Shown here in pieces: positions 15,608 to 33,301 of a DNA stretch of 64,000 bases (positions within the stretch are counted from its first letter, which is position 1; each line of letters opens with the position of its first letter). The stretch covers positions 669,373 to 733,372 of the forward strand of contig OY970378.1 of NCBI GenBank assembly GCA_963718875.1. The letters run 5' to 3'. The notes below the pieces were generated by a model. It did no database searches. It worked only from the letters and a program-made list of their open reading frames with translations, and was not told where the DNA came from. This DNA is from Candidatus Parcubacteria bacterium. GTDB taxonomy: Bacteria > Patescibacteriota > Saccharimonadia > UBA4664 > JBIOIQ01. The translations under genes were made by a program, and so were the position numbers.

Positions 15608-16266
15608 TATAAGCCTTTCACCAATACTATTCCCTTGCGTGGTCCGGGAACTTGGCCGTAAACACCTAGTACTTTGTGTTCGGCGTCGACAATCATAATT
15701 TTTACACCGCGAACGGTGTTGCGTTTATTGCCCATTTGTCCGGCCATGCGCATGCCTTTAAATACATGTTCTGGATAGCCCGCCCCGATAGAGCCGGGCG
15801 CACGATAGTTGTGCGAGCCGTGAGTTTTGGGACCGGTAGCAAAATTATGTCGCTTAACGGTGCCGGCAAAACCTTTGCCCTTGCTTGTGCCGGTGATTTG
15901 AACCTTGTCGCCAACCTCAAATGTTGTTACATCTAGCTTAGAGCCAACCTTCAGGTCATCGGTGCCTTCTTCGGAGCTTGCGTCGGGCTTATTGGTGTTG
16001 TTAAGGTCTGTGCGGATTTCACGCAAGATTTTGGAGTTGGTATTGGCTGCCTTGAGGTGTCCCATCTGAGGGCGGGCTTGGTGCTTAGCCTCGCCATAGC
16101 CAATTTGCACTGCGTCATAACCGTCTTTGACTTCGGTTTTTATTTGTGTGACCACACAAGGCCCAGCTTCAATAAGGGTAATGCGAGCAACATTGCCTTC
16201 TTCATCGAAGATCTGAGTCATGCCGAGTTTTCGTCCGATCAATGCTTTCATAAGGCCCTTTAACAA
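15607..16266 (-). CDS. rplC: 50S ribosomal protein L3
   Basis: 219 aa GMTQIFDEEGNVARITLIEAGPC...; first gene of the S10-type operon here (no rpsJ upstream). Confidence 0.95.
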   Translation of the reverse strand: MLKGLMKALIGRKLGMTQIFDEEGNVARITLIEAGPCVVTQIKTEVKDGYDAVQIGYGEAKHQARPQMGHLKAANTNSKILREIRTDLNNTNKPDASSEEGTDDLKVGSKLDVTTFEVGDKVQITGTSKGKGFAGTVKRHNFATGPKTHGSHNYRAPGSIGAGYPEHVFKGMRMAGQMGNKRNTVRGVKIMIVDAEHKVLGVYGQVPGPRKGIVLVKGL

Positions 16267-16392
16267 AAAATAATCCTAGCAAGCAGCTGGTTTCCCTTAT
16301 CGGGACCTGTCTACTTCCCAGTCGTTTATCTTAGATATTTTACGTGGCTACTCAAGGAAGAGTATCAAAGATTGGCTTGAGTGTCAATCAGC

Positions 16393-17289
16393 TTGTAATA
16401 AGGTTCATTACACTAAAGCGGAACAAGCTACAATCTAACTAGGACTAACCAGTTAGAAAAGGAGACTTGTTCCAATGACCACATTAGCAGATCTACCGGT
16501 AACAGACCAAGAATGTTTTAACCAAGTGCTAGTACATCTTTATCCCGAGGGCCCTATTTGCCCTTGGATGTCCCACTCAAACATCCACATAACTACTCAG
16601 TATCTTTGGTGCGGCACCTGTCGTCGTAAATGGAGCTTAAAGAAACAAGTCGGCTTTGGGTCGTCTAAGCTCGGCTGGAGGAGGATTCTGGAACTGGTGA
16701 CTTGCTGGAGCGGTAAGCAGTCACCTGGCGACATTATCACCTCAACGGGGCTGTCCTACTGGACGATCCAACGCTGGTTAGAACGCTTGCGATCTAGACT
16801 ACCAGTCGACAAGAGCCAGTTAGTCGGGCTACTGGAGATAGACCAGAGCTATCTAGGTCGGCAGAAATATGGTAACCAACACATTGTTATGGGTATCGTG
16901 GACCGGGAAACCAACCTCGTAAGACTAGCTGAGATACTAGATTGTGAGCAGGATAGCATAGAAGGTTTTCTCGATCAGTATGCCACTCTCGGTAGCCTGA
17001 TCTTTGCTGATGCTCACGCCTCTCACCTTGGCCTAATGGAAGTTGGCTATGGTCTGGAGATCTGCAACCATTCCATTGGCCACTTTGGACCAACCAACCG
17101 CATTGAAGGGATCTGGAGCTGCCTGGATCGGTTTACCAGACGTACCCGCGACCGCTTCATGCATCAGTTCTTACCGGGATTACTCAGAGAGTTCCAGGCT
17201 AGAAAGAACCACCCAGAGTTGTTCAGTAGCCCATTTATATTACTTAAAAGTATGTCTGTTCCGTTTTAGTGGACAGAACCTTGTAATAA
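16393..17289 (+). mobile_element. IS1595-family insertion sequence (~879 bp, 16402-17280) with ~24-bp imperfect terminal IRs and flanking 9-10 bp direct repeat (C)TTGTAATAA
   Basis: IRL GGTTCATTACACTAAAGCGGAACA versus reverse complement of IRR GGTTCTGTCCACTAAAACGGAACA (19/24 match); direct repeats at 16393-16401 and 17281-17289; single transposase ORF fills the element. Confidence 0.7.
16475..17269 (+). CDS. IS1595-family (ISXO2-like) DDE transposase
   Basis: N-terminal C-x2-C...C-x2-C zinc ribbon, LLEIDQSYLGRQKYG...IVMGIVDR and TNRIEGIWSCLDRF motifs characteristic of IS1595/ISXO2 transposases. Confidence 0.75.
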   Translation: MTTLADLPVTDQECFNQVLVHLYPEGPICPWMSHSNIHITTQYLWCGTCRRKWSLKKQVGFGSSKLGWRRILELVTCWSGKQSPGDIITSTGLSYWTIQRWLERLRSRLPVDKSQLVGLLEIDQSYLGRQKYGNQHIVMGIVDRETNLVRLAEILDCEQDSIEGFLDQYATLGSLIFADAHASHLGLMEVGYGLEICNHSIGHFGPTNRIEGIWSCLDRFTRRTRDRFMHQFLPGLLREFQARKNHPELFSSPFILLKSMSVPF

Positions 17290-17673
17290 TGAATATTTGC
17301 GAATCAGGGATAAAAGGTGGTTTGCGGCTCAGCGGATCTATTAACCAATTTTCGAATGAGTTGAAGGTTGTAAGGCAATAAATGAAGAAAATGTTGTTGA
17401 CTTTGTGTCAATTATAATGTATATTAGCTAATTAATTTTAGTGAGCGAGAAATGCGCAATGTTTACCATAATTCCCATATATATTTTGCCACCTGTGTAG
17501 GGCTGTATTTAACCAACTATGCTATTTATATTTACTTACCTAGCGAGCTAACTCAACTTCGGACAATAATGTCTACAGTCATGCTCGTACTTCTACTGCT
17601 GTCGATGGTAGCTGCCCTAGGTTTTATTTTTAAGCCTGCTGGTAAACTGCAAACTACGACCGAAAAAGGTTCG

Positions 17674-18030
17674 TTAACTCGTGGCAAAGTTAAAGAAAAC
17701 ACCAAGACCCGCAAACGCTAATAGTGCTGCAATAAGCAGTATGGCGTATTCGATTTTGCGATCAATCTGAAAATGGTCATGACTGCTAAAAATTAGGCCT
17801 AAGATGAGCCCTATGGGCAAAACTACTCGGCCATTAACCTTGATCCAAATGCTACCAAGGATGAAATACATTAATATTTTTAAGAAATAAACACTGCCGG
17901 ACTCTTGAGCTTGTTTTTTGTGTGCCATGGCATAATTTAAGCATAATCGCTTTAACGGTGCAAGCTCTTTGGGAATTTGCGAATTATGAACCCGAGAATC
18001 AGGAATTGTGGGCTGCAGTCGTCTCTTCAT
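17674..18030 (-). CDS. Hypothetical small membrane protein (2-3 TM helices)
   Basis: 118-aa ORF directly downstream of the NUDIX gene on the same strand; hydrophobic segments; no recognisable motif. Confidence 0.35.
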   Translation of the reverse strand: MKRRLQPTIPDSRVHNSQIPKELAPLKRLCLNYAMAHKKQAQESGSVYFLKILMYFILGSIWIKVNGRVVLPIGLILGLIFSSHDHFQIDRKIEYAILLIAALLAFAGLGVFFNFATS

Positions 18031-18107
18031 TTATTGCCTGAGCTAGTCGAAGGCTCAAGTGCGCAATTGCCCTTTGACAGACTAAGATGATGTAACGAGG
18101 CACAGCT

Positions 18108-18575
18108 TTAGATTATGCCCGCGTTTCTTGCGGCCTCAAGGTCGCGCATGGTTTGCGAATGGAGGGGCGAGGGCAGGCTTTCAAGGGTAAACCAGCCTAT
18201 ATCCTCAATTTTATGGGGATAGCCATTTTTAACTCGGGTTGGATCAACCTTGACGGCGTAAGAAAAAGCAATCCAATGAGTAGGCTTGTTGTTTAAAGTC
18301 CTGGTTACTTCGTACCAATCCAGAAATGTCATGTCTTGGCTTTCTGCAGACAGCTCTTCCTTGACCTCTCGTCTGATAGCATCGGGTATGCTTTCGTTAA
18401 ACTCAACTACTCCACCACCATTATCCCACACTCCCTGCTCGTCCCGACAGTTTTGACTACGCTTATGAAGCACGAATTTTCCTTTGCCGTCATGGACAAC
18501 AAAACAAGCAGCAACACCAACATAATCTACGCCCGGTCTTAGATCCTGGCGCTTATACTCTTTAGAATCAGTCAT
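18108..18575 (-). CDS. NUDIX hydrolase
   Basis: Nudix box GGVVEFNESIPDAIRREVKEELS (G-x5-E-x7-REVxEE); 8-nt overlap with upstream rarA. Confidence 0.8.
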   Translation of the reverse strand: MTDSKEYKRQDLRPGVDYVGVAACFVVHDGKGKFVLHKRSQNCRDEQGVWDNGGGVVEFNESIPDAIRREVKEELSAESQDMTFLDWYEVTRTLNNKPTHWIAFSYAVKVDPTRVKNGYPHKIEDIGWFTLESLPSPLHSQTMRDLEAARNAGII

Positions 18576-19779
18576 TTTTAGCTTCCTGTGGTCGGTAAAA
18601 GATTACCCCATCTAGTCCTTCAGGCATAAAACCCTTGGGATGCTCAAATCCCGGCTTCCATTTATAATCCTGCCCGTATTGAAGCTTTTTCATCAGTGAG
18701 GTTGGCGCATTGCGCAGATGCAGCGGCGGTTCGGCTGTTGGGTTATCCGCTACAGCCTGTGTAGCATTATTTATAGCATCATAGGCGGCTCTAGACTTGG
18801 GGCTAGTGGCCATTGCAATGGTGGTGTGACTCAAATTAATGCGGCATTCAGGCATTCCAATTCGCTCCACAGCTAAAAACGTTGATACAGCAAGGTTAAG
18901 CGCATCGGAATTAGCCATACCAACATCTTCGGAAGCAAAGATTACCATTCGCCGAGCAATAAACTTGGGGTCTTCGCCGGCTTCAAGCATTCTGGCAAGG
19001 TAAAATAAGGCAGCATTTACTGCTCCACCGCGCAAAGATTTAATATATGCAGAGATGAGGTTGTAGTGAAATTCTCCTCCCTTATCGTAGCGCAAACTGG
19101 TGGACTGCATGGCCTGTTTTATAACCGGTGTTGTAATGGTTGAAGCAAGACTTGCGGCTACTTCAAGACCGCCCAAAGCCATGCGGGCATCTCCTGCCGC
19201 TAACTCAGATAACAAGGCTTTTGCATCAGTTTCAATGGTTTTTCCTGGTAGCTCAGACATTGCCCTGTCAATAATAATCTGTAGCTGGCTAGGCGAAAGT
19301 GGCTCAAGCACGACTACTCGACTACGCGATAAAAGTGGCCCTATGACCTCGAATGAAGGGTTTTCGGTGGTGGCGCCGATCAAAATAATTGTGCCGTTTT
19401 CAACATGAGGCAAGAAGGCATCTTGTTGGGCTTTGTTAAACCGGTGTATTTCGTCTATAAAAAGAACGGTTTTTTGACCCATCTTGGTTCGCTCACTAGC
19501 TTGCTGGATAAGTTTTTTTACCTCAGGAAGGCCGGCGGCAACCGCTGATATCTCTTCAAAGGCAGCCTGGCTTGAGGCGGCAACTATTCGAGCTAGAGTA
19601 GTTTTGCCTGTCCCAGGGGGGCCCCAGAGTATCAATGACGTTGGCTGCCCAGCTTCAACAAGTTTGCGTATAAATTGGTTGTCACCTAAGACATGTTCCT
19701 GGCCAACAACTTCTTTTAAGTCTCGAGGTCGTATCCTATCCGCCAAAGGCTTTTGATTATTGGATTCAAATAGGTTCAT
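18568..19779 (-). CDS. rarA: Replication-associated recombination protein A (RarA/MgsA AAA+ ATPase)
   Basis: Walker A GPPGTGKTTLARIVA, Walker B VLFIDEIHRFNKAQQD, sensor and C-terminal MgsA domains. Confidence 0.9.
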   Translation of the reverse strand: MNLFESNNQKPLADRIRPRDLKEVVGQEHVLGDNQFIRKLVEAGQPTSLILWGPPGTGKTTLARIVAASSQAAFEEISAVAAGLPEVKKLIQQASERTKMGQKTVLFIDEIHRFNKAQQDAFLPHVENGTIILIGATTENPSFEVIGPLLSRSRVVVLEPLSPSQLQIIIDRAMSELPGKTIETDAKALLSELAAGDARMALGGLEVAASLASTITTPVIKQAMQSTSLRYDKGGEFHYNLISAYIKSLRGGAVNAALFYLARMLEAGEDPKFIARRMVIFASEDVGMANSDALNLAVSTFLAVERIGMPECRINLSHTTIAMATSPKSRAAYDAINNATQAVADNPTAEPPLHLRNAPTSLMKKLQYGQDYKWKPGFEHPKGFMPEGLDGVIFYRPQEAKND

Positions 19780-19931
19780 ATTGCTTCTATAATACCGAAA
19801 TCAAACCGAAGCTACTAATTTGCCAAATTACTCAGCCCTGCTGGACGATGGATAAGCTCAATTATAGCTTCTTTTTAAGCGAGTGTGGCTTTGGTCAATG
19901 ACCTAAGATTTTAACCTTGCGCGGTTTATCG

Positions 19932-20390
19932 CTACTTGTAATAGCTTCGTATCTGGAAAAGAATAAACAAGCTTAGGAGCGCACTTATGAGAGCATTCAA
20001 GATATGTCCGCTCAAGAGTCCCACCGCTAAGGACACTACAACACCGTAGAAAGTAAGCATCCAGCCTTGTTTGGTACGAGCCAACAAGCCGGGTATGGCC
20101 GCAGCGAACAAGCCAACCTGAACTAAGGTAACGATCCACACCAAGCCTATACCAGTGGCGACTGCTGGTGAAGCAACACCAATAACTGGTAGTGCGACGG
20201 TACTTATGCCCAATGCAAGCAACAACAAAGGCAGAGCTAAGAGAAGTAGAACTAGATCTATCCAGGGACCGTATTTTACAATCCATTTTTTAGCGTTTTC
20301 TGGAAGCTGTACTGGAGACTTTGTTACCAAATAGTATTCTAGCATTCCCATTACATCTTTTGGAGGAGTGTCCGAACTTGGTCGAGCCAT
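19932..20390 (-). CDS. Hypothetical polytopic membrane protein
   Basis: 152 aa with 3-4 hydrophobic helices, no recognisable catalytic motif; lies between the rarA upstream region and the IS481 left end. Confidence 0.45.
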   Translation of the reverse strand: MARPSSDTPPKDVMGMLEYYLVTKSPVQLPENAKKWIVKYGPWIDLVLLLLALPLLLLALGISTVALPVIGVASPAVATGIGLVWIVTLVQVGLFAAAIPGLLARTKQGWMLTFYGVVVSLAVGLLSGHILNALISALLSLFILFQIRSYYK

Positions 20391-20451
20391 TTTAATAAAT
20401 CCTTCATTAATACTTCCATCATAAGCAATTTGAGCTGAAAATTCAATTTAG

Positions 20452-21519
20452 TGTGGTGGTTCATAACATGAGCGCCACTTTTTCTCGTTCTAGTTTCTCG
20501 GCATATTCCTTTGGCGTCAAGTATCCGAGAGCTTCGTGTGGCCTGTAGTCGTGGTATTTCACTAGCCAAGTGTCGATGATGTCTTGTTGGTCGGCTAGAT
20601 CAATTGCTAGGCCGCCCCACTGGATACATTCCCGCTCCAAGGTACCAATGAAACGCTCAACATGGGGCTTGTCTTTGGGAGTGTAGGGACGGGCAAAGTA
20701 CTGCGTAACGTCCATCTCCTTTAAGAGTTTGGCAAACTTTCCTAAATTCTCAGAGCCGTTGTCGTTTAAGGCAGCGGTCGGGACTAGTCCCCAGAGCTCA
20801 CAAACCTTGGTCCAGGCAACGGCAGCTTGCTGAGATGAAATACTGCTAGCCACATGGACGAAAGCTCGTTTACCCACGACATCAATGGCCACAAACCCAT
20901 AGCGTTTAACCCCCAGCATGGGCAAGTGCTTAACATCCACCTCGACTAAGTCGCCAGGCTCTGCTGCCACCAGATCTTTCGGTTTACGACGGCGGTTGAC
21001 TCTGTCAGGGTGCCCTTGGGTTTAATTGGCGGGGTGATAAACAAGTTGTAGCGCTTGATGATCCGGCCAATAGTTGAGGCGGATAAAACTACTTCATGGT
21101 CACGCTGCAGAATAGTTGCTAGTTTGTACTTAGAGTATTCTGGGTTGGCTTTGCGCAAAGAGCAAACGAGATCTATGTGAGCTAAGGGGGTTGTGGGCTT
21201 ACGGACTTGCCTGGGACGTTGAGACAAGTTCTCCAGCCCTTTTAGTCCCTGTTGGTGAAACCTTTGGTAGTAGCGGTAGAAACTGCGATGATGGATGCCA
21301 AAATGGCGACAGGTTAGACGGGCATTGCGGCCATGGGAGTGGTAATAGTCTACCCATTTAAGCCGTTGTTTAGCTTCTTTGGATAACTCTACTGGATCAC
21401 GAACTTTTCCTAACCCTGGAACAATTACGCCAATAGATGTTTGGTGGCCTGTTCGACCCTTCATAACTGCCTCCTCTAGATTATTCTAGAGTGGCGCTCA
21501 TGTATGTGAACCTGGACAT
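20452..21519 (-). mobile_element. IS481-family insertion sequence (~1.07 kb) with TGT-initiated imperfect terminal IRs and possible 5-6 bp TSD (A)TTTAG
   Basis: Left end TGTGGTGGTTCATAACATGAGCGCCACT versus reverse complement of right end TGTCCAGGTTCACATACATGAGCGCCACT; TTTAG at 20447-20451 and 21520-21524. Confidence 0.6.
20461..21464 (-). pseudogene. IS481-family transposase split into two overlapping frames (N-terminal HTH part 20946-21464; rve/DDE integrase core 20461-20970)
   Basis: The upstream ORF ends ...IWWQQSLAT and the downstream ORF continues ...EPGDLVEVDVKHLP (first catalytic D region) in another frame; rve motifs YFARPYTPKDKPHVERF present; a frameshift near 20946-20970 is needed to join them. 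Confidence 0.65.
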
Positions 21520-21587
21520 TTAGCCTTGTAAAAAGGTTTTTTTTAGAGTTTTCTTCAAGAAATATTGGCAAAAGTAAGCATAAGGAC

Positions 21588-21616
21588 TTGACAATATAGT
21601 GCTTATGGTGTAGAAT
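21588..21616 (+). promoter_or_regulatory. Near-consensus sigma70 promoter TTGACA-17-TAGAAT
   Basis: -35 at 21588-21593, -10 at 21611-21616, 17-nt spacer; lies ~70 bp outside the IS481 right end, upstream of the Rpf-like gene. Confidence 0.5.
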
Positions 21617-21637
21617 ACCTTCTTATGTTCAGATGAG

Positions 21638-21661
21638 GGCCTGATTACAGGTCTTTTTTTT
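21638..21661 (+). terminator. Intrinsic-terminator-like hairpin (GGCCTG-ATTA-CAGGTC plus T8) about 15 nt after the predicted TSS; candidate attenuator
   Basis: 6-bp stem (one GU) followed by 8 T; between the promoter and the 21765 start codon. Confidence 0.4.
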
Positions 21662-21764
21662 CTGGACATAATATCTCATTCATTCGGGGTGAGGTGGAGT
21701 TATATCACATAACGAAAGGTACACTAAGCATCGGCTGGCGCATTATCTTGCGTAACCGATACAT

Positions 21765-22380
21765 ATGCGTAACTTTACTAAGTTAGTAATGGCTTCGGCT
21801 ATGCTAGCTACTCAGGCGACACCTACTGCTCCTTATGTAGACGCCGCTTCAGTTAGGGCTTCAGTCCCTACTGTAGTTTCTTCAGAAAGTATGATTCATT
21901 TTTCAACCGCTTCAGTATATGCGGTTGAACTTGAAACTAAACCACAACCAGACTTTGATAGCGAAGTTTTAGTGCCTTTGCGGAAAGCTCAAGCTGATGC
22001 AGCTCAAAAAGCCGCTGAAGCTAAAGCTGCTCAAGCAGCAGCTCAAAAGGTTGCTCAAGCAGCCACTGCCAGCACGAACAGTTACCACTACGACCAAAAG
22101 CTTTGCGTATAATGGCCAAGTTTTAAGTGAGGCTGCTATACAATTCTTAGGTAATTGCGAGAGTGGCATGACGGCCAACCGTAATTCAGGAAACGGTTTT
22201 TACGGTGCCTTCCAGTTTACCATTAGCACTTGGAATTCAATGCAAACTGGCTATGCGCGAGCTGACTTAGCTCCCTTAGATGTCCAGATTCAAGCTGTCC
22301 ATAAGCTGCTTTCAAAATCTTCGATTTACACTCAGTTCCCCGCTTGTGCTCGAAAAATGCAAGCTGCTGGTCTGATTTAA
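21765..22380 (+). pseudogene. Secreted Rpf-like (resuscitation-promoting-factor-type) transglycosylase, frameshifted
   Basis: Signal peptide plus Ala/Gln-rich linker in frame 1 (21765-22112), and NCESGMTANRNSGNGFYGAFQFTISTWNS...FPACARKMQAAGL transglycosylase-like domain in frame 2 (21997-22380); one indel near 22060-22090 would join them. Confidence 0.6.
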
Positions 22381-22388
22381 CTAAAAGC

Positions 22389-22418
22389 AAAAACCGCTTT
22401 TAAAAGGGCGGTTTTTGC
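22389..22418. terminator. Bidirectional intrinsic terminator (AAACCGC...GCGGTTT with flanking A/T runs)
   Basis: Hairpin directly after the Rpf-like stop. Confidence 0.45.
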
Positions 22419-22473
22419 GTGTAAAAAGTAACCTTTAGTTGTCGAGTCTCGATGGTTTTTCTCGAATGTCTAT

Positions 22474-23010
22474 TTATAAGGTCGTGTCGGCGATATTGGT
22501 ACCACCATGTACGCCATCTCCCCGAAGATCTAGATCCGTTGGATTACTTGCAGGGGTTGTTGGGTCGACCATCGGCGGCATTTCTGGATTTGTCTCGATA
22601 GGGTCGGTAGCAGGGTTATGAGATGGAATTTCTATTTCCTTAATGCTTAACTGCGAAGCCAAAGTTATTTGAGAGTCCTGTAGTGCTCGAGCTGTAGCAA
22701 GGGTAGATAATGCGGGGTTTACGGGCTTATAAACAATGCGGGGTTTAATAGTAGTACTGCGATATTGGGGAGCTTGCGTGCTTAGCTGAGAGGGATTTGT
22801 TGGCTGAGAAAGTGAGCTTTGAGGGGTGATGATTTGAGTTTTAGGCTTTGGAGCAACTCGAGGTTTATTAGCTACTGGTTTCTGCCCAGGAAGTCTGAAA
22901 AAGGCTAAGCTAATAGTAGCCCCTAGTAATAAAACAATTGTAAGCGCAGCAAAAGTTTTTACTCCGTTTTGAACAGATTGTTTTTGACTTAATTGCTTCA
23001 TAAACTCCAT
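22474..23010 (-). CDS. Hypothetical N-terminally membrane-anchored Pro/Thr/Ser-rich protein
   Basis: 178 aa, one TM helix near the N-terminus, then a low-complexity P/T/Q-rich region. Confidence 0.5.
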   Translation of the reverse strand: MEFMKQLSQKQSVQNGVKTFAALTIVLLLGATISLAFFRLPGQKPVANKPRVAPKPKTQIITPQSSLSQPTNPSQLSTQAPQYRSTTIKPRIVYKPVNPALSTLATARALQDSQITLASQLSIKEIEIPSHNPATDPIETNPEMPPMVDPTTPASNPTDLDLRGDGVHGGTNIADTTL

Positions 23011-23091
23011 GTTGTGGTTGGCTCACTGACTTTAAGTAGGAGCCTATTTTAGTTTGTTTTGGTCAAAATTACAATATTTTTGATGGATTAT

Positions 23092-24594
23092 TTAAGGCTT
23101 GTGATTACTCACTAGATCTTGGTTCGACGATATACTTTGCAAGAATTGATAAATTTTTACCATAGCTAGAGTGTCTTGTCCGCAGTAGGTTATGAGGTCT
23201 GAGTAGACCTTTTGGTTTTCTTCGGTCGTTAAATGCCCTTTGGCGCTATTTGTCCACCGAATTTGAGCAGTTGCTCCTTCGTGAATCTCTAAGTCGGCGT
23301 AGCTCATTTCTGGCACAAGAATTGGTAAGACGTTCTTTATGGATACGCTACCGCCAAAATTGGGGTCTACATACCAAAAGTTACTAAATACTTCCATTAA
23401 ATCCACAACTCGGTCGTTAACTGAAGCTAAAAAACTTGCATATTCAGGTTGTAGCCTTGACATGGTGTTGTTGCAGCTCATTTCAAACAGTTTAAACCAA
23501 ACCAATACGCTTCCGCTTAGTCCAAGATCTCTCTCTAGCCGCAAGAGAAGTTGCGGTATAGGATTGTCGCTTCCGCGGCTCAAGAATTCCTTGTGGCGCA
23601 CTTCCCCACCCGGCATATCAATAATATGGAGAGAATATTGGAATGGAAGCTGTTGGTATGGTCTTTGCTTATCCCATAGTGGAATGGCAAGATTATAGGT
23701 TTCGTAATCAAGAAAATATAGTGGATATTGAAGCTGGCTTAACCACTCAGCAATTTTTACTCGATGCGTTGCTGGTCGGTCTAACCGTAGAGCTTCAATG
23801 TATGCGCGTTGTTCTCGTGATAGTTTGGACGACAGAGAAATTTGACTTGATTTTGTAATCCCCGACTGGCTCCATGAGCGCAGCTGATCGGGCTTAAGCC
23901 GCTTCAGCCTGAAAATGCTATCTGGTTCCAGGCTGGGGTGAAGATGCCGATATGTCGGTAACCAAGCACCTAAGTTGGTTGCCTTAATGGGGTGCAAATC
24001 TGGACATTGGCTAAGGTTGAGCACACCAATAGCCTCAATAATTTTGCTTTTAGTAGAGTCAAGGATGGAGTCGACCCGGTCGGTAACGTTAACTGTTTTG
24101 AAAAGGTGACGTGGATTTATAGCACCGTCTTTCGTGAATCGGGTATTTATGTGTACAACAAAGGTCTGGCCTATTTTGTAACCATAGTCTGTAAAGGCGA
24201 CTTTTTGAAAACTTAGGTCGTTTAGGTGGTCAAACCGGACTTTGGTTGCGGCTTTAATTTCGTAAATGTCCCAATGCAAGCCGTTTTTTACCAAAACGTC
24301 AGCCCGCGCATATAAATTGCGACTAGTTAAGACGGACGCCTGGAAGAGGGTGGTCGAACCGTTGCTTATAATCCAGTTAGTGTCAGTAACGGCCTCTTTA
24401 AGAACCGTTTCTATCATTATCCCATCAGGAAAAAGACTGCGGGCAAGTGCCTCCACCTCGTTCCCTTGGTTTACGTGGTAGTGTCCTGATTCATCGAACG
24501 GCGGCAGTTTGTCTTTGTCGTATTTTGAAAGCCAAAGGTAGGCCGGATGAATTAGGAACTTTAGGTAGTCAGACTTGGTTAGCCATTTAGCCAT
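23092..24594 (-). CDS. Two-nuclease-domain protein: N-terminal PD-(D/E)xK nuclease, C-terminal DEDDy-like 3'-5' exonuclease domain (DUF2779-like)
   Basis: ARADVLVKNGLHWDIYEIKAATKV (D...EIK motif) in the N-terminal half; YFLDYETYN (Exo I-like DxE) and YCGQD (Exo III-like YxxxD) in the C-terminal half. Confidence 0.55.
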   Translation of the reverse strand: MAKWLTKSDYLKFLIHPAYLWLSKYDKDKLPPFDESGHYHVNQGNEVEALARSLFPDGIMIETVLKEAVTDTNWIISNGSTTLFQASVLTSRNLYARADVLVKNGLHWDIYEIKAATKVRFDHLNDLSFQKVAFTDYGYKIGQTFVVHINTRFTKDGAINPRHLFKTVNVTDRVDSILDSTKSKIIEAIGVLNLSQCPDLHPIKATNLGAWLPTYRHLHPSLEPDSIFRLKRLKPDQLRSWSQSGITKSSQISLSSKLSREQRAYIEALRLDRPATHRVKIAEWLSQLQYPLYFLDYETYNLAIPLWDKQRPYQQLPFQYSLHIIDMPGGEVRHKEFLSRGSDNPIPQLLLRLERDLGLSGSVLVWFKLFEMSCNNTMSRLQPEYASFLASVNDRVVDLMEVFSNFWYVDPNFGGSVSIKNVLPILVPEMSYADLEIHEGATAQIRWTNSAKGHLTTEENQKVYSDLITYCGQDTLAMVKIYQFLQSISSNQDLVSNHKP

Positions 24595-24624
24595 ACTTAA
24601 TATTGTAACAAAAGCTGTTACTTG

Positions 24625-25395
24625 CTATTTGAATCGTGACGCTGACTCAATTAAGGCTTGGCGGGATTTGCGATAGCTTTTTAGGCCTAAAAACATGGCC
24701 GGAATGGCAACACTTGCTATCAGAGGTGCCTCTGAGCCAGTTTTAGGGGTTGTGGCGGGTTTTGGAATAGGTGTTGTCGCAGGAGTAGGCGGTGGAACAG
24801 AGATAGGCGCCGGCGCGGGGGTGGCTTTTGTCATCGGGGCTGGCGTAGGTTTTGGTACCGGAGTGGGAGCAGGTACTGGAGTCGGCGTCGGACTTGTCAT
24901 TGCAGTAGTGGCTACCACGGGACGTGCCGTTACAGGATTACCGCAAGATTTGATAACGGCCCACATGAACTGGTTGTTCTGCATGTATACGTAAGCGGGG
25001 AGACTGTCGCTGACAAAGGATACGGACGTAGGGCGAATCCAAACGTTAGCCATTGCAGTTGATCCTTCCATGAACTGACGCCCGACAGATTGGGCATTTG
25101 TTGCAACAACACGGTTATTTAGCAGTAGCACATTCCCGGCTTTTGTTACAGTTCCTTCAACTGTTGAGCTAATAAGATTAGGGTCAATTCCGCTAGCAGC
25201 GTAAATACTTGAAATGTCAGCTGAGCTATTGTGTCCATCTCCTTGGGTCGCAGCTTTGACTACATCTGACGGATACGTTGCTCCACACCAAATAACGGCA
25301 TTATCATCGCAATCTTGGGCAGCTTGAGTTGACAATGGATTCGCAATAGCTATGGCTACGAGCACAATGATTGGTAGTAACTTTTGCTTATTCAT
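24625..25395 (-). CDS. Secreted surface protein with Pro/Thr linker and C-terminal sortase-type sorting signal (TPKTG plus TM helix plus basic tail)
   Basis: N-terminal signal peptide; PTPTPVPAPTPVPKPTPAP linker; C-terminus TTPKTGSEAPLIASVAIPAMFLGLKSYRKSRQ. Confidence 0.55.
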   Translation of the reverse strand: MNKQKLLPIIVLVAIAIANPLSTQAAQDCDDNAVIWCGATYPSDVVKAATQGDGHNSSADISSIYAASGIDPNLISSTVEGTVTKAGNVLLLNNRVVATNAQSVGRQFMEGSTAMANVWIRPTSVSFVSDSLPAYVYMQNNQFMWAVIKSCGNPVTARPVVATTAMTSPTPTPVPAPTPVPKPTPAPMTKATPAPAPISVPPPTPATTPIPKPATTPKTGSEAPLIASVAIPAMFLGLKSYRKSRQALIESASRFK

Positions 25396-25602
25396 AGATT
25401 AGATCCTTTTATGAGTAACAACATCGAATTCTATCATGGCAGAGAAGCCAACAGATTGACTTGTTGAAAGTCACACAAAACAAGCCTAGTTATTAAAACT
25501 TCATTGGAATAACAACCATCATCTTAATACTCGTTTGATTTTTAGCTGGACTTTACTTTTGGCTACTTTAAGGTCAGAATGTAAGCATAATAAGGATTTA
25601 CA

Positions 25603-26373
25603 ATGTCTGAAAATTCTGTGCTGGGCCAGCCCCAAAAAGACCGTCTCAGTATATCATTTGGCTACAAGTTCATATCCCTGACATTGCTCGCAGTGATCGC
25701 TATTATGCTTCTGGTTTGGAAGCCCTGGGTTTCAACCGCCAATGCAGACGATCGTACTATTTCGGTTACAGGCAAAGCCGATATCAAAGCCGAGCCGGAC
25801 GAATATGTCTTTAATCCTAGTTATCAGTTTAAGAACATTGATAAGGCAGCTGCTCTTAAGAACCTCACCGCTAAAAGCAGCGAACTGATAGCAAAATTAA
25901 AGGGTATGGGCGTTGAAGACCGGAATATAAAAACAGATTCTAACGGATATGACTATCAACGCTACTACTATAATAACGACACAAAAGAATCGACTTACAC
26001 CTTAGTTTTGACTGTGACGCTTGCAAACCGCGATAAAGCTCAGAAAGTCCAAGACTATCTTGTAACAACTGACCCTACGGGGAGCATATCGCCCAATGTA
26101 ACTTTTAGCGATAGTAAACGTAAGGCGCTTGAAAGCCAGGCTCGAGACCTCGCTACAAAAGAAGCACGCTCAAAAGCTGAGCAGTCGGCTAAAAATCTTG
26201 GATTTAAGGTTGGGGCAGTTAAGGCGGTCCAGGACGGCTCTGGTTTCGGCAATATATATCCAATGCAGGGCAGGGCCAGCTTAGAGACATCGTCAGAGGA
26301 TGCAAAGTTAGATGTGCAACCCGGTCAAAATGACCTCAGCTATACCGTAAACGTTGTTTATTTTGTTAAATAA
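25603..26373 (+). CDS. SIMPL (DUF541) domain protein, YggE/BP26-like periplasmic/extracytoplasmic protein
   Basis: N-terminal TM/signal anchor, then RTISVTGKADIKAEPDEYVF and downstream SIMPL-like pattern; AAGGA Shine-Dalgarno 7 nt before the ATG. Confidence 0.65.
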   Translation: MSENSVLGQPQKDRLSISFGYKFISLTLLAVIAIMLLVWKPWVSTANADDRTISVTGKADIKAEPDEYVFNPSYQFKNIDKAAALKNLTAKSSELIAKLKGMGVEDRNIKTDSNGYDYQRYYYNNDTKESTYTLVLTVTLANRDKAQKVQDYLVTTDPTGSISPNVTFSDSKRKALESQARDLATKEARSKAEQSAKNLGFKVGAVKAVQDGSGFGNIYPMQGRASLETSSEDAKLDVQPGQNDLSYTVNVVYFVK

Positions 26374-26663
26374 TATTTTAAGCATAACTAGGTTGACTCA
26401 AACTAGTGTATTGTGATTAACTTGACTTACCAACTTAAGTTTTGTGGAGTTGGATGTTTATAACGGCCGCTAAGGTTCGTTATGGTACCTATCTAGAGAG
26501 GACTGCTCATAAACTGTTTAAACAATAGACGCGAAACGTCTAGAGTGATTTCAGTAAGAGTGATACGAGCGCCTAGGCTAATCCATCCTGAAGTGTGATT
26601 GTGGAAAATTACGCTAAAATCATGATACTAGCTATTTGGATGTGTCTTCAAAAGAGCAACTGC

Positions 26664-26694
26664 ACCTCTGACTTCCAATCGGAGGTGTTTTTGT
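26664..26694 (+). terminator. Intrinsic terminator (CACCTC-13 nt-GAGGTG plus TTTTTGTG) in non-coding DNA
   Basis: 6-bp GC-containing stem followed by a T-run; no convincing CDS upstream on the plus strand. Confidence 0.4.
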
Positions 26695-27017
26695 GTTAAT
26701 TTGCTTTAACCAACAACTTAATTCATAATTTTGGTGTCCGGTTCTCCAGCAGAAAGGTGCTTTAAGGTGTCACTGCAGTTGTTCCTGATCCTGACAGCGT
26801 TGCTAGGATGGTTTCTTCCGGCAATGTTACTCAATCTGCTCCTACGCCAGGTTAGAAGGCTATATCCAAGAAGCCGAGTCGCGATCATTTCTCGTGACTG
26901 GCTGTACAGTTGGAAATGGTTCCTGTGCTGGTGGATCACCGTATTGTGCATCATTTTCCGAGTCGAAGATAAGCCAGCCTTCGCTTCGTCGACTACGTCG
27001 CCAACGGCGGAATCGTA

Positions 27018-27084
27018 ACACCCCTAAGTAGTAATTTATCGCCAACGGGCGATATCCGCTTTTCTCAGGGGTGTCGTCTTTTTA
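27018..27084 (+). terminator. Two-level hairpin (ACACCCCTAAG...CTCAGGGGTGT with an inner ATCGCC/GGCGAT hairpin) followed by a T-run
   Basis: 10/11-bp outer stem, 6-bp inner stem, then CGTCTTTTTA; abuts the 3' end of the minus-strand CYTH gene. Confidence 0.4.
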
Positions 27085-27089
27085 TAAAG

Positions 27090-27662
27090 CTACCGTTTTT
27101 CCTGCTGATCAAATTTAAGTATTTTGTAATCAAGCATATTAATCCCTGAGGCTTCATAGATCTGAAAGGCTGAGCAAATCTTCTTGTCCGCTTGACTTAG
27201 GCTGAGTTTTTCGATCATTTTGTCAATATCTGCCCAGCTGGTAGCTTCAATCTCAAGATAGGGTGGGATCAAAGGCATCTCATCAATGTCGAGCTCTACC
27301 CCATCTAGTTCATAACGCGTGCGCTTTTTTTCTTCCAGGAACTTTTCGACCAGTCCAATACGGCGTAGGATCTCGGAGGTGGCTTCAAAGTCGCTAACTT
27401 TTACTTCATGTTCAAGCATTGAGCTATCATTTGCGCCGGCTTTAACTCCTTGGCGCTGTTTGTATGCCAGCTTGGTCTCGTTACCATCGCTACGTAAGCG
27501 CACCCAGGCAGCTTGCTCATTAAGGCGTAAGTCGGGGAAATCAAAGGTGGTGATGCGATACTTTGTTTCGAATAGCTTTTTCCCACCCAGTTCGATAATT
27601 TGATTCTTAAGGTGGTCCCGATTGATATTGAGGAATTTAACTTCTATTTCTTCCATGCACAT
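27090..27662 (-). CDS. CYTH-domain protein (triphosphate tunnel metalloenzyme / class IV adenylate cyclase-ThTPase family)
   Basis: N-terminal EIEVKFL signature and overall ~190-aa CYTH pattern of alternating acidic/basic beta strands. Confidence 0.7.
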   Translation of the reverse strand: MCMEEIEVKFLNINRDHLKNQIIELGGKKLFETKYRITTFDFPDLRLNEQAAWVRLRSDGNETKLAYKQRQGVKAGANDSSMLEHEVKVSDFEATSEILRRIGLVEKFLEEKKRTRYELDGVELDIDEMPLIPPYLEIEATSWADIDKMIEKLSLSQADKKICSAFQIYEASGINMLDYKILKFDQQEKR

Positions 27663-27757
27663 TCTATCCAGTTAGGTCCCTTGACTCGTATAACTCGCTC
27701 GGGATGACAGATAAGTGAAGTTCTGCGGGATACGTTGTGCAGAATTTTACTTCTTTG

Positions 27758-27793
27758 TCACATCTTAATTTCGATGTCGACGCCAGCTCGGGG
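27758..27793 (-). other. Diverged partial copy of the rpsJ 3' end (encodes [11 protein letters not shown] plus stop), located immediately 3' of the real rpsJ stop
   Basis: 26/34 nt identical to the authentic rpsJ terminus at 27808-27841; differences are mostly synonymous third-position changes. Confidence 0.55.
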
Positions 27794-27805
27794 TTTTCGC
27801 GTAGC

Positions 27806-28136
27806 TACATCTTGATTTCAATGTCAACACCGGCAGGGAGATTGAGGTTCATGAGTGCATCGATCGTCTTGGGAGTTGGTTCGGTAATATCGATGAGACG
27901 TTTATGGGTGCGCATTTCAAATTGTTCTCGGCTGTCTTTATGAACGAATGTGCCTCGGATAACAGTAAAGCCTTTTTTTCGGTTGGAAGTGGAATTGGAC
28001 CAGCTACTAGTGCGCCTGTTCGTATGGCAGTATCAAGAATCTGCTTGGCAGACTGATCGATAACCTTAGAATCATAGGCTTTAAGGCGAATGCGGATTCG
28101 TTGTTTAACGGCTTCTTTTTCGGGTTTTTCTGGCAT
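27806..28136 (-). CDS. rpsJ: 30S ribosomal protein S10, reading frame interrupted at an A7 homopolymer (plus-strand T-run 27973-27979)
   Basis: Frame 1 gives [55 protein letters not shown]; with one extra A the downstream frame reads [56 protein letters not shown], a canonical S10 C-terminus. Confidence 0.85.
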
Positions 28137-28176
28137 TTGTACTAAGGTTCCTATTCCTTCTTTAGGGTATGCAAAG

Positions 28177-28195
28177 GCCCCGCAGGGTGCGGGGC
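28177..28195 (-). other. GC-rich perfect hairpin (GCCCCGC-5 nt-GCGGGGC) in the tuf-rpsJ intergenic spacer
   Basis: 7-bp G/C stem with no following U-tract; likely an RNA processing or stability element rather than a terminator. Confidence 0.3.
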
Positions 28196-28206
28196 TAGCA
28201 TGTATG

Positions 28207-29397
28207 TTACTTAATAATCTTGGTTACAACTCCGGCACCAACAGTACGGCCACCTTCACGAATGGCGAAACGTAGGCCTTCTTCCATGGCAATCGGTGCA
28301 ATCAGAGTGATTTTCATTTGTACATTATCACCAGGCATTACCATCTCCATACCCTCTGGAAGCTGAACTTCACCAGTTACGTCAGTGGTGCGGATGTAGA
28401 ACTGGGGCTTGTAACCTTTGAAAAATGGAGTGTGACGTCCACCCTCTTCTTTTTTTAGTACGTATACTTCGGAATCAAATTCAGTGTGAGGAGTGATGGA
28501 GCCTGGCTTAGCTAATACTTGTCCACGCTCAATGTCGGTACGCTCGATACCACGTAACAGCGCGCCTACGTTGTCACCTGCTTGGGCATCCGGTAGGAGC
28601 TTTTTAAACATCTCAACACCGGTAATGACGGTCTTTTTGGTGGGGTGAATGCCGATAATTTCGACTTCGTCATTTACCTTGACTATACCTTGCTCAATAC
28701 GGCCGGTCGCAACAGTACCACGGCCTTTGATCGAGAAAACATCTTCAATAGGCATAAGGAACGGCTTGTCAAGTTCGCGCTTGGGCTCTGGAAGGTAGTC
28801 ATCCATAGCCTTAACAAGCTCTAAAATAGCTTTTTCAGCGTCAGCATCGCCTTCCATCGCTTTAAGAGCTGATCCCTTAATGATAGGCGCATTGTCGCCG
28901 TCATACTCGTTTTTGTTGAGTAATTCGCGAATTTCGACTTCTACTAGTTCTGCTAACTCTGGGTCAGCCATGTCCATTTTATTCATGAATACGAGAATGC
29001 TAGGAACGCCTACTTGTCGAGCCAACAGAACGTGCTCGCGAGTTTGAGGCATGGGGCCGTCAGCGGCGCTTACTACTAAGATGGCGCCGTCAATCTGGGC
29101 GGCACCGGTAATCATGTTTTTGACATAGTCAGCATGACCCGGCATATCGACATGAGCGTAGTGACGCTTTTCGCTTTCATACTCTTCGTGAGATGTTGCA
29201 ATCGTAATACCACGTTGTTTTTCTTCTGGCGCGTTGTCAATTTGCGCGTACGATACGGGCTTATTAATGCTTGATGGTAGGTGTTTTGCAAGTACTGTTG
29301 TAATAGCAGCTGTTAGCGTGGTTTTACCGTGGTCGACGTGACCCATGGTACCAACATTAAGATGCGGCTTGGTGCGTGAATATGTTTCTGTAGCCAT
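28207..29397 (-). CDS. tuf: Elongation factor Tu
   Basis: 396 aa, [27 protein letters not shown] motifs; AAGGAG Shine-Dalgarno upstream. Confidence 0.97.
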
Positions 29398-29676: not shown

Positions 29677-30225
29677 TTACGATAGGGGCACCAAACGCAT
29701 CAGATTGCCCAATGCAGTCGGGTTTTGTTGGAGGAAGTAAATCGCTATCAGGCTGCTGCCTCCAACTGCAGAAAACCAGCACAGAATTAGGTTGCCCATG
29801 ACTGCCTGTATAACCATCAAGCAGAGTAAAATTGCGCCTATGAGGTTGAGTTGGGACGCTCCGGACGTTAATAATACTGCGGTTATGAGCAGTACTATCA
29901 CTTGCTCAGCAACAAGTAGTAAGACGGCACGCGCTTTTTCGTGGTATTTCCAGAGCTCGATAGGATGGCTCAAGCTCTCGAAGCACCCAGTTGAGAGTTT
30001 TTCTTGGAGACTCATTCTACTGAGGACGATTGCCTTACACCCACCTATCCATAGCCCCACAACACACGTAAATAATGGGAGTCGTAGTTGCGGCCGAAAG
30101 ACGACTATAGTTCCGCATGCGCCCAGCATGGCCAGTGACAGGTAGAGAAAGCTGATCTTAAGGTTGGCTTCGGATTTACTGTTCGCTTTGGTAAGCTTGC
30201 CGTTCATCGATTGCTCTGCTTTCAC
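29677..30225 (-). CDS. Hypothetical polytopic membrane protein
   Basis: 182 aa, 5-6 predicted TM segments, no recognisable family motif. Confidence 0.45.
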   Translation of the reverse strand: MKAEQSMNGKLTKANSKSEANLKISFLYLSLAMLGACGTIVVFRPQLRLPLFTCVVGLWIGGCKAIVLSRMSLQEKLSTGCFESLSHPIELWKYHEKARAVLLLVAEQVIVLLITAVLLTSGASQLNLIGAILLCLMVIQAVMGNLILCWFSAVGGSSLIAIYFLQQNPTALGNLMRLVPLS

Positions 30226-30656
30226 TAAGAGCTTGCTCGTCTGCCAAGGTGGTAGAGCGCACGCTAATAATAATGCGTGCTTGAGTGATAAAGCAAGCGA
30301 ATCACATATATAGAGGTCATCTAGATGAGGCTAGTCGTGGCTCCAAGTTCGACGACTATTTACTTCCTCCTTGGCTCTAAAGGCCTTTTCAAGGTCGAGG
30401 TCTAGCTCATTGCTTATATCCATAATTAAAAAAAGCATGTTGGCAAATTTTTTTTCCAAGTTTCTTTGCTTGGAGCCTGCATGAAGCTTGATGCCTCTTA
30501 GACTGCGAACGGTTTAGCAGCTTCTCCAGCTCTTCCTGGAGAAGCATAAACTTTTGAGGTATACTTTCCTCGTCAAAACCTCTTTGTATCGAGACAGCTT
30601 TAACATAGCTTTGCAACTCTGCCAGGGTACGACCAAACTTAATTACGCTAACGTTC

Positions 30657-31073
30657 CTAGGCTCGCGATTTGGTGCGGCTAATTCGGATTAGTGCGACGA
30701 TGATATATGCGACTACTGCATATACTGCCATTGCAACCAGGGTAGCAAGTTCAAAGCTAGCTACAGTAAAGTTGTCTGTAACCGAGAATATGCCGATAAA
30801 TGGGTAGATTAGGGGGTACGTGATGGCGTAAATGAGATTTACGAAAGTACTGACAGAATTGGCTCCTAAAAGGCGCAGTACCAGTCGGAAAGCTAACAGA
30901 ATTTCGACTATTGTTAAGATTAGATAAATAATTTGAGCCGCTCGAGATTCGACAGGCTCGACTACAGCGGGGGTAGTGGCAACAGCTGGACGCTCCGTAA
31001 CGACTGTACGTTCAGTAGCTACGGTTGGTTCATTTACAACGGTTTCACGGGTTTCTTCAACAATTCTAGCCAT
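30657..31073 (-). CDS. YggT-family-like small membrane protein with Thr/Val-rich N-terminal region
   Basis: LLAFRLVLRLLGANS...FVNLIYAITYPLIYPF resembles the YGGT repeat; N-terminal repetitive TVATERTVVTERPAVATTPAVVEP. Confidence 0.45.
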   Translation of the reverse strand: MARIVEETRETVVNEPTVATERTVVTERPAVATTPAVVEPVESRAAQIIYLILTIVEILLAFRLVLRLLGANSVSTFVNLIYAITYPLIYPFIGIFSVTDNFTVASFELATLVAMAVYAVVAYIIVALIRISRTKSRA

Positions 31074-31219: not shown

Positions 31220-33301
31220 TTAATTGGCGACCGCTTTTTTACCAATAATTTCGTCGGCTACGTTACGTGGAACTTCAGCGTAGTGGTCAAACTCCATGGA
31301 ACTAGCAGCTCGCCCTTGAGTCATTGAACGAAGTGTAGTTGTGTAGCCAAACATTTCAGATAGAGGTACCATGGCGTCAATTACTTTAGCCAGACCGCGA
31401 TCATCCATTTTTTCGATTCGACCGCGCTTAGAATTGAGGTCACCAATAACATCCCCCATAAATTCTTCTGGTACAGTTACTTCTACTTTCATAATCGGTT
31501 CTAAAATGACTGGATCTGCTTTTCGTACGCCTTCCTGGAGAGCCATTGATCCGGCAATTTTGAAAGCCATCTCGTTAGAGTCTACTTCGTGGAAGCTACC
31601 ATCGTAAAGTTTTGCTTTGACGTCTACAACAGGGTATCCAGCAACTACGCCATTTTGTAACGCTTCTTTTACGCCATTCTCCACTGGAGTAATGTATTCT
31701 CGGGGAATCGCACCGCCAACAATGGCATTCTCCCATTCAAAACCTGCTCCCATTTCATTGGGGCTAAGTTCTAGCCAGACGTGGCCGTACTGACCCCGTC
31801 CCCCACTCTGGCGTACAAACTTACCTTCTGCTTTAACGGTCTTCCTAATAGTCTCACGATAGGCCACTTGTGGCTTACCAACATTGGCTTCGACTTTGAA
31901 CTCTCGCTTCATACGGTCTACGATAATATCTAGATGAAGTTCACCCATTCCGCTAATAATAGTTTGGCCTGTTTCTTCATCTCCTCGCACTCGGAAGGTT
32001 GGATCTTCTTCGGCTAGGCGCTGTAAAGCAGTACTCATCTTCTCTTGATCAGCTTTAGTCTTAGGTTCAATAGCAATTGAAATAACTGGTTCTGGAAAGG
32101 TAATTGATTCGAGAATGATAGGGTGGGCAGGGTCGGTCAGGGTGTGGGCTGTGGTTGTTCCTTTTAGTCCGACGGCTGCAGCAATTTCTCCTGAAAATAC
32201 TTCGCTAACTTCTTCCCGACTGTTGGCATGCATCCTCAAAATTCGGCCAATTCGTTCTTTTTCGCCGGTACTTGCGTTTAGAATATATGATCCAGCCTTA
32301 AGCGTGCCAGAATAAACCCGGAAAAAAGCCAGTTTGCCGACAAAGGGATCGGTGGCAATTTTAAAAGCCAGGGCTGAAAAAGGCTCTTCGTCACTGGCGT
32401 GACGGATGGTCTCCTCGCCAGTTTTAGGGTCTATGCCTTTAATAGCCGGTATGTCGAGCGGGCTGGGCAAGTATGTGTTGACGGCGTCAAGTAGCTGTTG
32501 CACTCCTTTATTCTTTAGAGCAGATCCTGAGAGTACGGGATAAAGTTCATTATTTATTACCGCTTTGCGCAAAGCCGCATTCAGCTCAGCTTCAGTGATT
32601 TCTTCGCCTTCCAAAAATTTTTCGGTCAGAGCTTCATCCGTTTCGGCGATACGTTCTACCATAATGGTGCGGTACTTTTCGGCATCAGCTTTCATATCCT
32701 CGGGAATGTCCGTTACCTCGAAAACCTTACCCATGTCGTCTTTGAAAATGATGGCATTCATTTTGATAAGGTCGACAATACCTTGGAAACGGTCTTCAGC
32801 ACCGATAGGCAGTTGTATGGCCACGGCCTTTTTAGTTAGGCGTGTCCAAATGCTATCAAGGTCTTTATAAAAGTCGGCTCCAGTGCGATCCATTTTGTTG
32901 ACAAAGCAGATACGGGGAACTTCATATTTATCTGCTTGGCGCCAAACGGTTTCAGACTGAGGTTCAACACCAGCTACACCGTCAAAAACAGTTACTCCAC
33001 CATCAAGCACACGCAAACTACGTTCTACCTCAACAGTAAAATCGACATGTCCAGGGGTATCAATAATGTTGATGCGATGGTCGTTCCAAAAACAGGTAGT
33101 TGCAGCTGAGGTAATAGTAATGCCTCGCTCTTGCTCCTGTTCCATCCAATCCATGGTAGCTTCGCCCTCGTGCACTTCGCCGATTTTATGGGTTTTACCT
33201 GTATAAAAAAGAATGCGCTCTGTGACTGTTGTTTTTCCAGCGTCGATGTGGGCAATAATTCCGATGTTACGAGTTTGTGCAAGCGAGTATTCGCGGGCCA
33301 T
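31220..33301 (-). CDS. fusA: Elongation factor G
   Basis: 693 aa, [22 protein letters not shown] motifs, domains II-V. Confidence 0.97.

Follow-up and report, generated by a model that had tools for sequence, protein, structure and literature searches.

The DNA analyzed (the window) is a 64-kb stretch of a genome from the Saccharimonadia (TM7, Patescibacteria). Reading along its minus strand, rpoB, rpoC, rpsL, rpsG, fusA, two small membrane-protein genes, and tuf lead up to rpsJ, the gene for ribosomal protein S10, and just 3′ of the rpsJ stop codon, on the same strand, lies a second rpsJ tail (Table 1). The membrane-protein genes (29677-31073; 182 aa and 138 aa, the latter YGGT-like) separate fusA from tuf, which are adjacent in the usual arrangement; the relative L084 also has extra small open reading frames (ORFs) between these two genes.

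Past rpsJ, a CYTH-domain gene is followed by a 716-nt gap, a SIMPL gene on the plus strand, a gene for a 256-aa secreted protein, a DUF2779 gene, and several small ORFs, and then by a split IS481-like transposase, MgsA, NUDIX, and an IS1595-like transposase that adjoins rplC and the rest of the S10/spc cluster. The S10 operon is therefore split, with rpsJ closing the str operon and lying about 11.5 kb (16267-27804) from rplC. Relatives L001, L083, L084, and L086 have the same split, and L003, a more distant Saccharibacteria locus, keeps rpsJ next to rplC. A Pfam scan of every ORF of 110 aa or more in the rpsJ-rplC interval of the window found no tyrosine or serine recombinase; the only transposition or recombination genes detected were broken DDE transposases, the IS1595-like one and the split IS481-like one. 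The gap between the convergent CYTH and SIMPL genes (26374-27089) holds no convincing ORF and matches nothing in Pfam or Rfam; it measures 8 nt in L001 and, as in the window, 716 nt in a contig of the same species. At 20461-21464 and 21765-22380, the IS481-like transposase is split into HTH and rve ORFs, and an Rpf-like transglycosylase is split into two overlapping ORFs. Because these breaks lie away from long homopolymers, both may be true pseudogenes.

Table 1. Positions of the features discussed, in window coordinates
Feature	Position	Strand	Description
fusA	31220-33301	-	
tuf	28207-29397	-	
rpsJ (ribosomal protein S10)	27805-28136	-	frameshifted as assembled; corrected translation 100% identical to P0001
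A7 run	27973-27979	-	A_AAA_AAG in zero frame (dnaX-type heptamer); point of the rpsJ frame break
Functional rpsJ tail	27805-27840	-	11 residues + TAG; reads CTC CCT GCC GGT GTT GAC ATT GAA ATC AAG ATG TAG (27840->27805)
Linker between tails	27794-27804	-	11 nt, CTACGCGAAAA; first bases similar to L085 post-stop bases (TAG CTAGGC)
Second, untranslated rpsJ tail	27758-27793	-	11 residues + TGA; reads CCC CGA GCT GGC GTC GAC ATC GAA ATT AAG ATG TGA (27793->27758)
Secure homology of the tail copy	27758-27787	-	GCT...TGA, 30 nt; encodes AGVDIEIKM + stop; pattern GCN GGN GTN GAC ATH GAA ATH AAG ATG + stop
Imperfect hairpin	27717-27753	-	GAAGU..UUCUGC / GCAGAACUUC; dG -8.9 kcal/mol, z -3.65, 12-nt loop, no U tract; directly after the copy
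Hairpin-like motif	27675-27708	-	GTCATCCCGAGCG...GTCAAGGGACC (CCYGAGC-N-GTCRA type); in the rpsJ-CYTH spacer
CYTH-domain gene	27090-27656	-	first gene after rpsJ; same neighbor in L001 and in the P0001 and P0003 contigs
rplC	15607-16266		

A second rpsJ tail beyond the stop codon

An earlier note on this locus had described a diverged second copy of the last 11 codons of rpsJ directly after the stop codon. The copy is real and lies where it was reported: a match of at least seven of the nine amino acids was reproduced in none of 20,000 shuffles of the downstream 300 nt, and a match of at least 23 of 30 nt in 0/20,000 shuffles. Two details needed correction. The end of the functional gene, which the note gave as 27806-27841, is placed one base off there (Table 1), and nine of the 11 codons in the copy are secure. 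The two upstream codons do not match (Leu-Pro versus Pro-Arg), which limits the secure homology to 30 nt. The 5′ flank of the copy, AACCCCGA, is not rpsJ-like; it is similar to the flank of a copy in the relative L083.

The two tails are identical at 26/36 nt over the span first reported and at 23/30 nt from GCN to the stop codon. Their differences were said to be almost all synonymous third-position changes together with an unlike stop codon, and this description holds without exception within the 27 secure coding nucleotides. All nine residues of AGVDIEIKM are shared, and each of the five nucleotide differences exchanges C and T at the third position of a codon, so that five of the nine wobble positions and none of the 18 other positions have changed. 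The stop codons are TAG in the functional tail and TGA in the copy. Five random substitutions in 27 nt would all be synonymous with a probability of 4.5e-5, or of 7.7e-4 if only transitions are considered. The tails repeat with a period of 47 nt, which is not a multiple of three and puts the copy out of frame with rpsJ; given the different frame, the stop codons before it, and the lack of an upstream start codon, the copy is untranslated. The longest exact word that the tails share in register is the 7-nt AAGATGT, and the other short identities at the 47-nt offset are GACAT and GAAAT.

This pair is the sole nearby peptide-level repeat of its kind in the window. We found no third rpsJ-tail copy in the 64 kb or near rplC and no further copies of the rpsJ-CYTH spacer in the window, and a repeat search of the window gave nothing relevant.

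Reading frame of rpsJ and the spacers on its two sides

As assembled, the frame that begins at the rpsJ ATG ends after 95 aa at 27849, and the C-terminal half of S10 is encoded in the -1 frame, which ends at the TAG at 27805-27807. An extra A, or a -1 slip, at the A7 run restores the canonical PLPTEKKGFTVI and gives a 110-aa S10 identical to P0001, which comes from a same-species Logan contig. Programmed -1 ribosomal frameshifting of the dnaX type is unlikely: the heptamer is not conserved in relatives, which carry an interrupted run (GAA AAG AAR in frame) at this position; no stimulatory structure was found downstream of the heptamer, where the fold is no better than that of shuffles (z +1.4); and the same-species contig encodes an intact S10. 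The frameshift probably reflects either a consensus error in the homopolymer or a variant of the strain. Since the gene is essential and its break falls on a dnaX-type heptamer, rpsJ of this assembly needs a check at the level of reads.

The hairpin that the earlier note had placed after the copy exists, at 27717-27753, and it is weak. A terminator scan did not call it; it may be a weak terminator or a processing site. The rpsJ-CYTH spacer as a whole folds no better than shuffled sequence (z -1.25), and neither the spacer nor L083 matched Rfam at gathering or lax thresholds. In addition to the site listed in Table 1, the CCYGAGC-N(1-14)-GTCRA motif occurs at 18037-18060 (plus strand) and 27776-27792 (minus strand) of the window and at 1394-1420 and 1815-1832 of L083. 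The three occurrences in the window, against 0.27 expected, are intergenic, and the stems flanking the motif vary (ATCCT/AGGAT, GCCT/AGGC, and TCCC/GGGA). The occurrence at 27776-27792 is made up of the non-rpsJ flank of the tail copy and the start of the copy itself. In L083, the tuf-rpsJ spacer is one of the places that hold the motif. The motif matches no known family in Rfam.

On the other side of the gene, the tuf-rpsJ spacer (28137-28206) contains a terminator-like hairpin, GCCCCGCACCCTGCGGGGC, followed by CTTTGC. Given this hairpin between tuf and rpsJ, rpsJ may rely on read-through or on a promoter of its own. The corresponding spacer of L083 has the motif GTCATCCTGAGCG in place of the terminator-like hairpin.

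rpsJ ends in relatives and in metagenomes

The rpsJ stop codon is a breakpoint of synteny, because the next gene is unlike in most relatives. The CYTH gene follows rpsJ in the window and in the three other contigs named in Table 1; its place is taken by a 114-aa ORF in L083, a 201-aa ORF in L084, other ORFs in L085, a DUF6941 gene in L086, a helicase gene in the P0013 contig, and rplC in L003. The P0003 contig has the order rpsJ-CYTH-SIMPL with an rpsJ-CYTH spacer of only 35 nt. In L001, where S10 is 95% identical and the tuf-rpsJ region 78.5% identical at the nucleotide level, rpsJ ends cleanly, with a strong terminator and no copy, and yet the gene order downstream is CYTH, SIMPL, a 253-aa secreted protein, and DUF2779. 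The accessory genes closest to rpsJ are therefore old, shared synteny. The earlier note had taken the 3′ end of rpsJ for the recombination point that bounds an accessory region; the breakpoint stands, and the island boundary does not, because L001 shares the downstream genes.

A clean terminator hairpin directly follows the rpsJ stop codon in L001, L084, L085, and L086. None of these four loci has a tail copy, nor do L002, L003, L082, and 78 other rpsJ loci. In the S10-based scan of a genome collection, the matches listed came mostly from distant phyla, and the Saccharibacteria among them were L002 and L003 only.

Within the species, a 4,556-bp Logan contig from ERR12037361 encodes S10 (after frame correction of the window), CYTH, and SIMPL proteins identical to those of the window. 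Its rpsJ is intact and 1 nt longer, its rpsJ-CYTH spacer measures 97 nt versus 148 nt in the window, and the remaining spacings are equal. The difference of 51 nt, in a contig known here from gene coordinates alone, comes near the 47-nt period of the tails without equaling it. The window has no microhomology at a 51-nt offset, and its CCCGAGC repeats lie 89 nt apart. The length difference suggests that the tail copy is polymorphic within the species.

One relative, L083 (GCA_025491075.1, JAOQFB010009675.1; S10 95% identical), has a decayed rpsJ-tail copy of its own at 1790-1866, 75 nt past its real tail. This copy, GTTGATATATAAATCAAAATGTAA, matches the L083 tail at 20/24 nt, a score equaled by 1 of 20,000 shuffles. 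It keeps the codon choices of L083 (ATA, ATC, and AAA) and has acquired a GAA->TAA change and a 12-nt insertion, which together make it look like a decaying local duplicate; L083 possibly has one more partial tail copy, GCCGATATCGAAGTG. The L083 copy is preceded by AACCCTGA, which resembles AACCCCGA of the window, and the two flanks match at seven of the eight positions of AACCCYGA, which is not rpsJ sequence. With a chance probability that we roughly estimate at p = 0.01, this sharing is suggestive, not compelling. Like the window, L083 lacks a canonical terminator, and in both species the tail-like sequence is followed by a hairpin with TTCTG/CAGAA arms.

The silent-only divergence of the two tails in the window implies that they diverged while both ended working rpsJ genes, since a copy free of selection would not drift in this way. 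The earlier note had proposed a fragment of a different rpsJ allele in preference to a fresh tandem duplicate. The copy does look like the end of another working rpsJ gene, one of the Patescibacteria type, and not like a duplicate that is fresh or drifts freely. The 11-residue tail is invariant among the 120 closest S10 proteins, and its terminal Met (...IKM*) is of the Patescibacteria type; S10 of Actinobacteria and Firmicutes ends in Leu. TGA, the stop codon of the copy, is rare in the source genome (3/40 long ORFs). Compared with real rpsJ ends, the copy differs at 1/30 positions from L082, at 4/30 from L084, and at 7/30 from the resident tail. An exact search of JGI metagenomes (27 coding bases, T, and the degenerate stop codon TRR) had L082, a real rpsJ end, as its one match. 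All 27 coding bases of the copy agree with L082 and the flanks are unrelated, so that L082 demonstrates that such an allele exists without identifying the donor; the exact agreement may also be a coincidence, given about 4,600 possible synonymous versions and many natural alleles. Searches of metagenomes and viral contigs found no donor with matching flanks, and the degenerate GVDIEIKM-stop pattern had 0 matches in viral contigs. A sequence suited to a search for a donor that matches in both the rpsJ end and the downstream flank is CTACGCGAAAACCCCGAGCTGGCGTCGACATCGAAATTAAGATGTGACAAAGAAG. Codon usage gives no sign of which of the two tails is native, and either could be the incomer.

Origin of the second tail

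We tentatively favor, at somewhat less than an even chance, the explanation that the second tail is a nonfunctional scar, left when diverged DNA recombined at the border of the conserved block that runs from rpoB to rpsJ. The rpsJ stop codon is the last base of this long and very conserved block (rpoB, rpoC, rpsL, rpsG, fusA, tuf, and rpsJ), through which DNA from another lineage of Saccharimonadia or Patescibacteria could have paired with the chromosome. As the homology does not reach past the stop codon, the other end would have been joined illegitimately a few bases away, and both tails would have been kept, 47 nt apart. Equally possible is a version in two steps, in which slippage duplicated the tail (compare L083) and recombination later replaced the allele of the working gene. 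In either version, one tail would be foreign to the other, and their differences would be silent only. The copy would do nothing now, beyond perhaps lengthening the 3′ untranslated region ahead of the weak hairpin.

To our knowledge, illegitimate recombination has never been demonstrated in Saccharibacteria. We infer the uptake of foreign DNA and the recombination; the observations themselves are the layout of the tails, their silent-only divergence, the lack of att and integrase features, the patchy distribution, and the break in synteny. Saccharibacteria are naturally competent (PMC10633639), and in Acinetobacter short ectopic patches are integrated at microhomologies (bioRxiv 10.1101/2023.11.22.568220); both serve here as analogies. 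The HFIR/SPDIR scars described there in Acinetobacter baylyi resemble the arrangement in the window in that short ectopic or foreign DNA lies beside a homologous anchor, with no mobile-element genes, in a naturally competent group. They differ in that the microhomologies expected at their junctions are not evident here, where no donor has been identified; none was obvious at the junctions of the tail copy, which cannot be placed exactly. The degenerate repeats of tRNA 3′ ends at hot spots of genomic islands are similar in that recombination returns repeatedly to one conserved gene end and leaves partial copies behind, as L083 with its own copy would illustrate; in contrast to those repeats, rpsJ is a protein gene to which no islands or integrases are attached. 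Because L083 has independently acquired a decayed copy, the rpsJ end appears to be a site that collects such scars repeatedly. The shorter spacer of the Logan contig is compatible with a recent, polymorphic event.

If the copy is a recombination scar, it would preserve a small, datable trace of exchange with diverged DNA in a bacterium of the candidate phyla radiation, at the very end of a universally conserved operon block. Such traces could help to map DNA exchange in reduced, naturally competent genomes and to explain why the S10 operon breaks after rpsJ in this clade. For annotation, the locus is a warning that a gene-end repeat alone is insufficient for calling an island boundary.

Integrative elements have two att copies, one at each end. 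The earlier note had read the two tails as the classic scar of such an element or of recombination with foreign DNA that brought its own rpsJ end. As an att scar, the pair would go back to an element with an rpsJ 3′ end of its own, which restored the gene on entering the rpsJ tail and was later deleted almost wholly, leaving attL and attR side by side. The evidence from the locus makes this unlikely. The copies lie in tandem, 47 nt apart with 11 nt between them, and flank neither an island nor kilobases of other DNA; no third copy exists in the window, and no integrase was found in the 16.3-27.8 kb interval; the clean site of L001 has the same downstream genes; the rpsJ end is on no viral contig; and the element would have had to be removed in its entirety, precisely and in an extra step. 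The longest exact identity of the copies is 7 nt, a core that is enough for some recombinases and far below typical gene-end att repeats. On the other side, a tail carried by an element would stay under coding constraint, in agreement with silent-only divergence, the common AACCCYGA flank of the window and L083 copies could be an arm of the element, and both the patchy distribution of the copy and the variable region downstream of rpsJ among relatives are as expected of an integration site. Streptococcal ICEs do target the 3′ ends of ribosomal protein genes (rpsI, rplL, and rpmG; PMC4701971), and their attL and attR resemble the present case in having a diverged second gene 3′ end adjoin the intact gene at a boundary of conserved and variable DNA. 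They are unlike it in the tandem arrangement here, in the missing recombinase, element, and intervening kilobases, in the identical core of at most 7 nt, and in that relatives with an empty rpsJ site keep the same downstream genes. We found no relevant literature on rpsJ as an attachment site.

Less probable than an att scar is a duplication of the resident tail in place, by slippage and then drift, with no foreign DNA involved. The L083 copy, with its own codons, nonsense change, and 12-nt insertion, fits such a history, and in the window the tandem arrangement and the short identities at the 47-nt offset (GACAT, GAAAT, and AAGATGT) agree with it. Free drift of an untranslated copy, however, should hit all positions, and the changes are at 5/9 wobble and 0/18 non-wobble positions; moreover, TAG->TGA takes two changes, each of which had to retain a stop codon.

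A similarly low probability applies to the idea that a site-specific process, as yet unrecognized, acts on the rpsJ stop codon in this clade, where it would repeatedly deposit or capture functional-looking rpsJ tails and swap the downstream cargo. Either a small CCYGAGC-N-GTCRA hairpin element or an insertion system without an integrase could be behind it. Such a process would account for the presence of copies in two species, for their common flank, and for the differing neighbor gene in nearly every relative, and the similar 8-nt flank at two scars in two species could point to it instead of to the recombination scar that we favor.

It is more doubtful still that the rpsJ-like sequence and the hairpin form a functional cis-element, acting at the RNA or DNA level in 3′-end processing, termination, or the binding of a protein by mimicry of the rpsJ tail. 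In two species a hairpin with TTCTG/CAGAA arms does come after a tail-like sequence, both are without the canonical terminator of the other relatives, and the CCYGAGC-N-GTCRA motif is overrepresented (3 versus 0.27 expected). A conserved function would, however, sit poorly with copies that differ between the window and L083 at 8/30 positions and by a 12-nt insertion, with the absence of the copy from most close relatives, and with a spacer whose fold is no better than that of shuffles (z -1.25) and that has no Rfam match.

The least probable explanation is an assembly or consensus artefact, in which reads of a related species were mixed into the conserved rpsJ region or the local consensus is in error, comparable to the frameshift at the A7 run 180 nt upstream. 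In its favor, the Logan contig of the same species departs from the window at precisely this place (spacer 51 nt shorter, rpsJ intact), other genes in the window are broken, and chimeric rpsJ products exist in metagenome data (P0004). Against it, the lack of a common word longer than 7 nt makes a k-mer join impossible, long-read errors do not produce 47 nt of codon-consistent sequence, and the independent assembly of another species (L083) has the same kind of feature.

Several other systems were considered and rejected. In the template and variable repeats (TR/VR) of diversity-generating retroelements, a repeat of a gene 3′ end likewise lies just downstream of the gene; here, the C<->T differences, on the coding strand, run in both directions and are not adenine specific, no reverse transcriptase is present among the scanned ORFs, and S10 is not a variable protein. 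On the basis of the mismatch pattern, the lack of the corresponding genes, and how large and how diverged the repeat is, we also rejected a homing spacer of a CRISPR-transposon, a target duplication by a casposon or transposon, and an antisense-RNA target.

The metagenomic product P0004, from a JGI contig of 1,044 bp, is a 166-aa S10 that joins residues 1-75 of one allele to a diverged second allele, which runs from about residue 20 to the end. It is either a chimera of metagenome assembly or a real internal, diverged duplication in the rpsJ gene of another organism.
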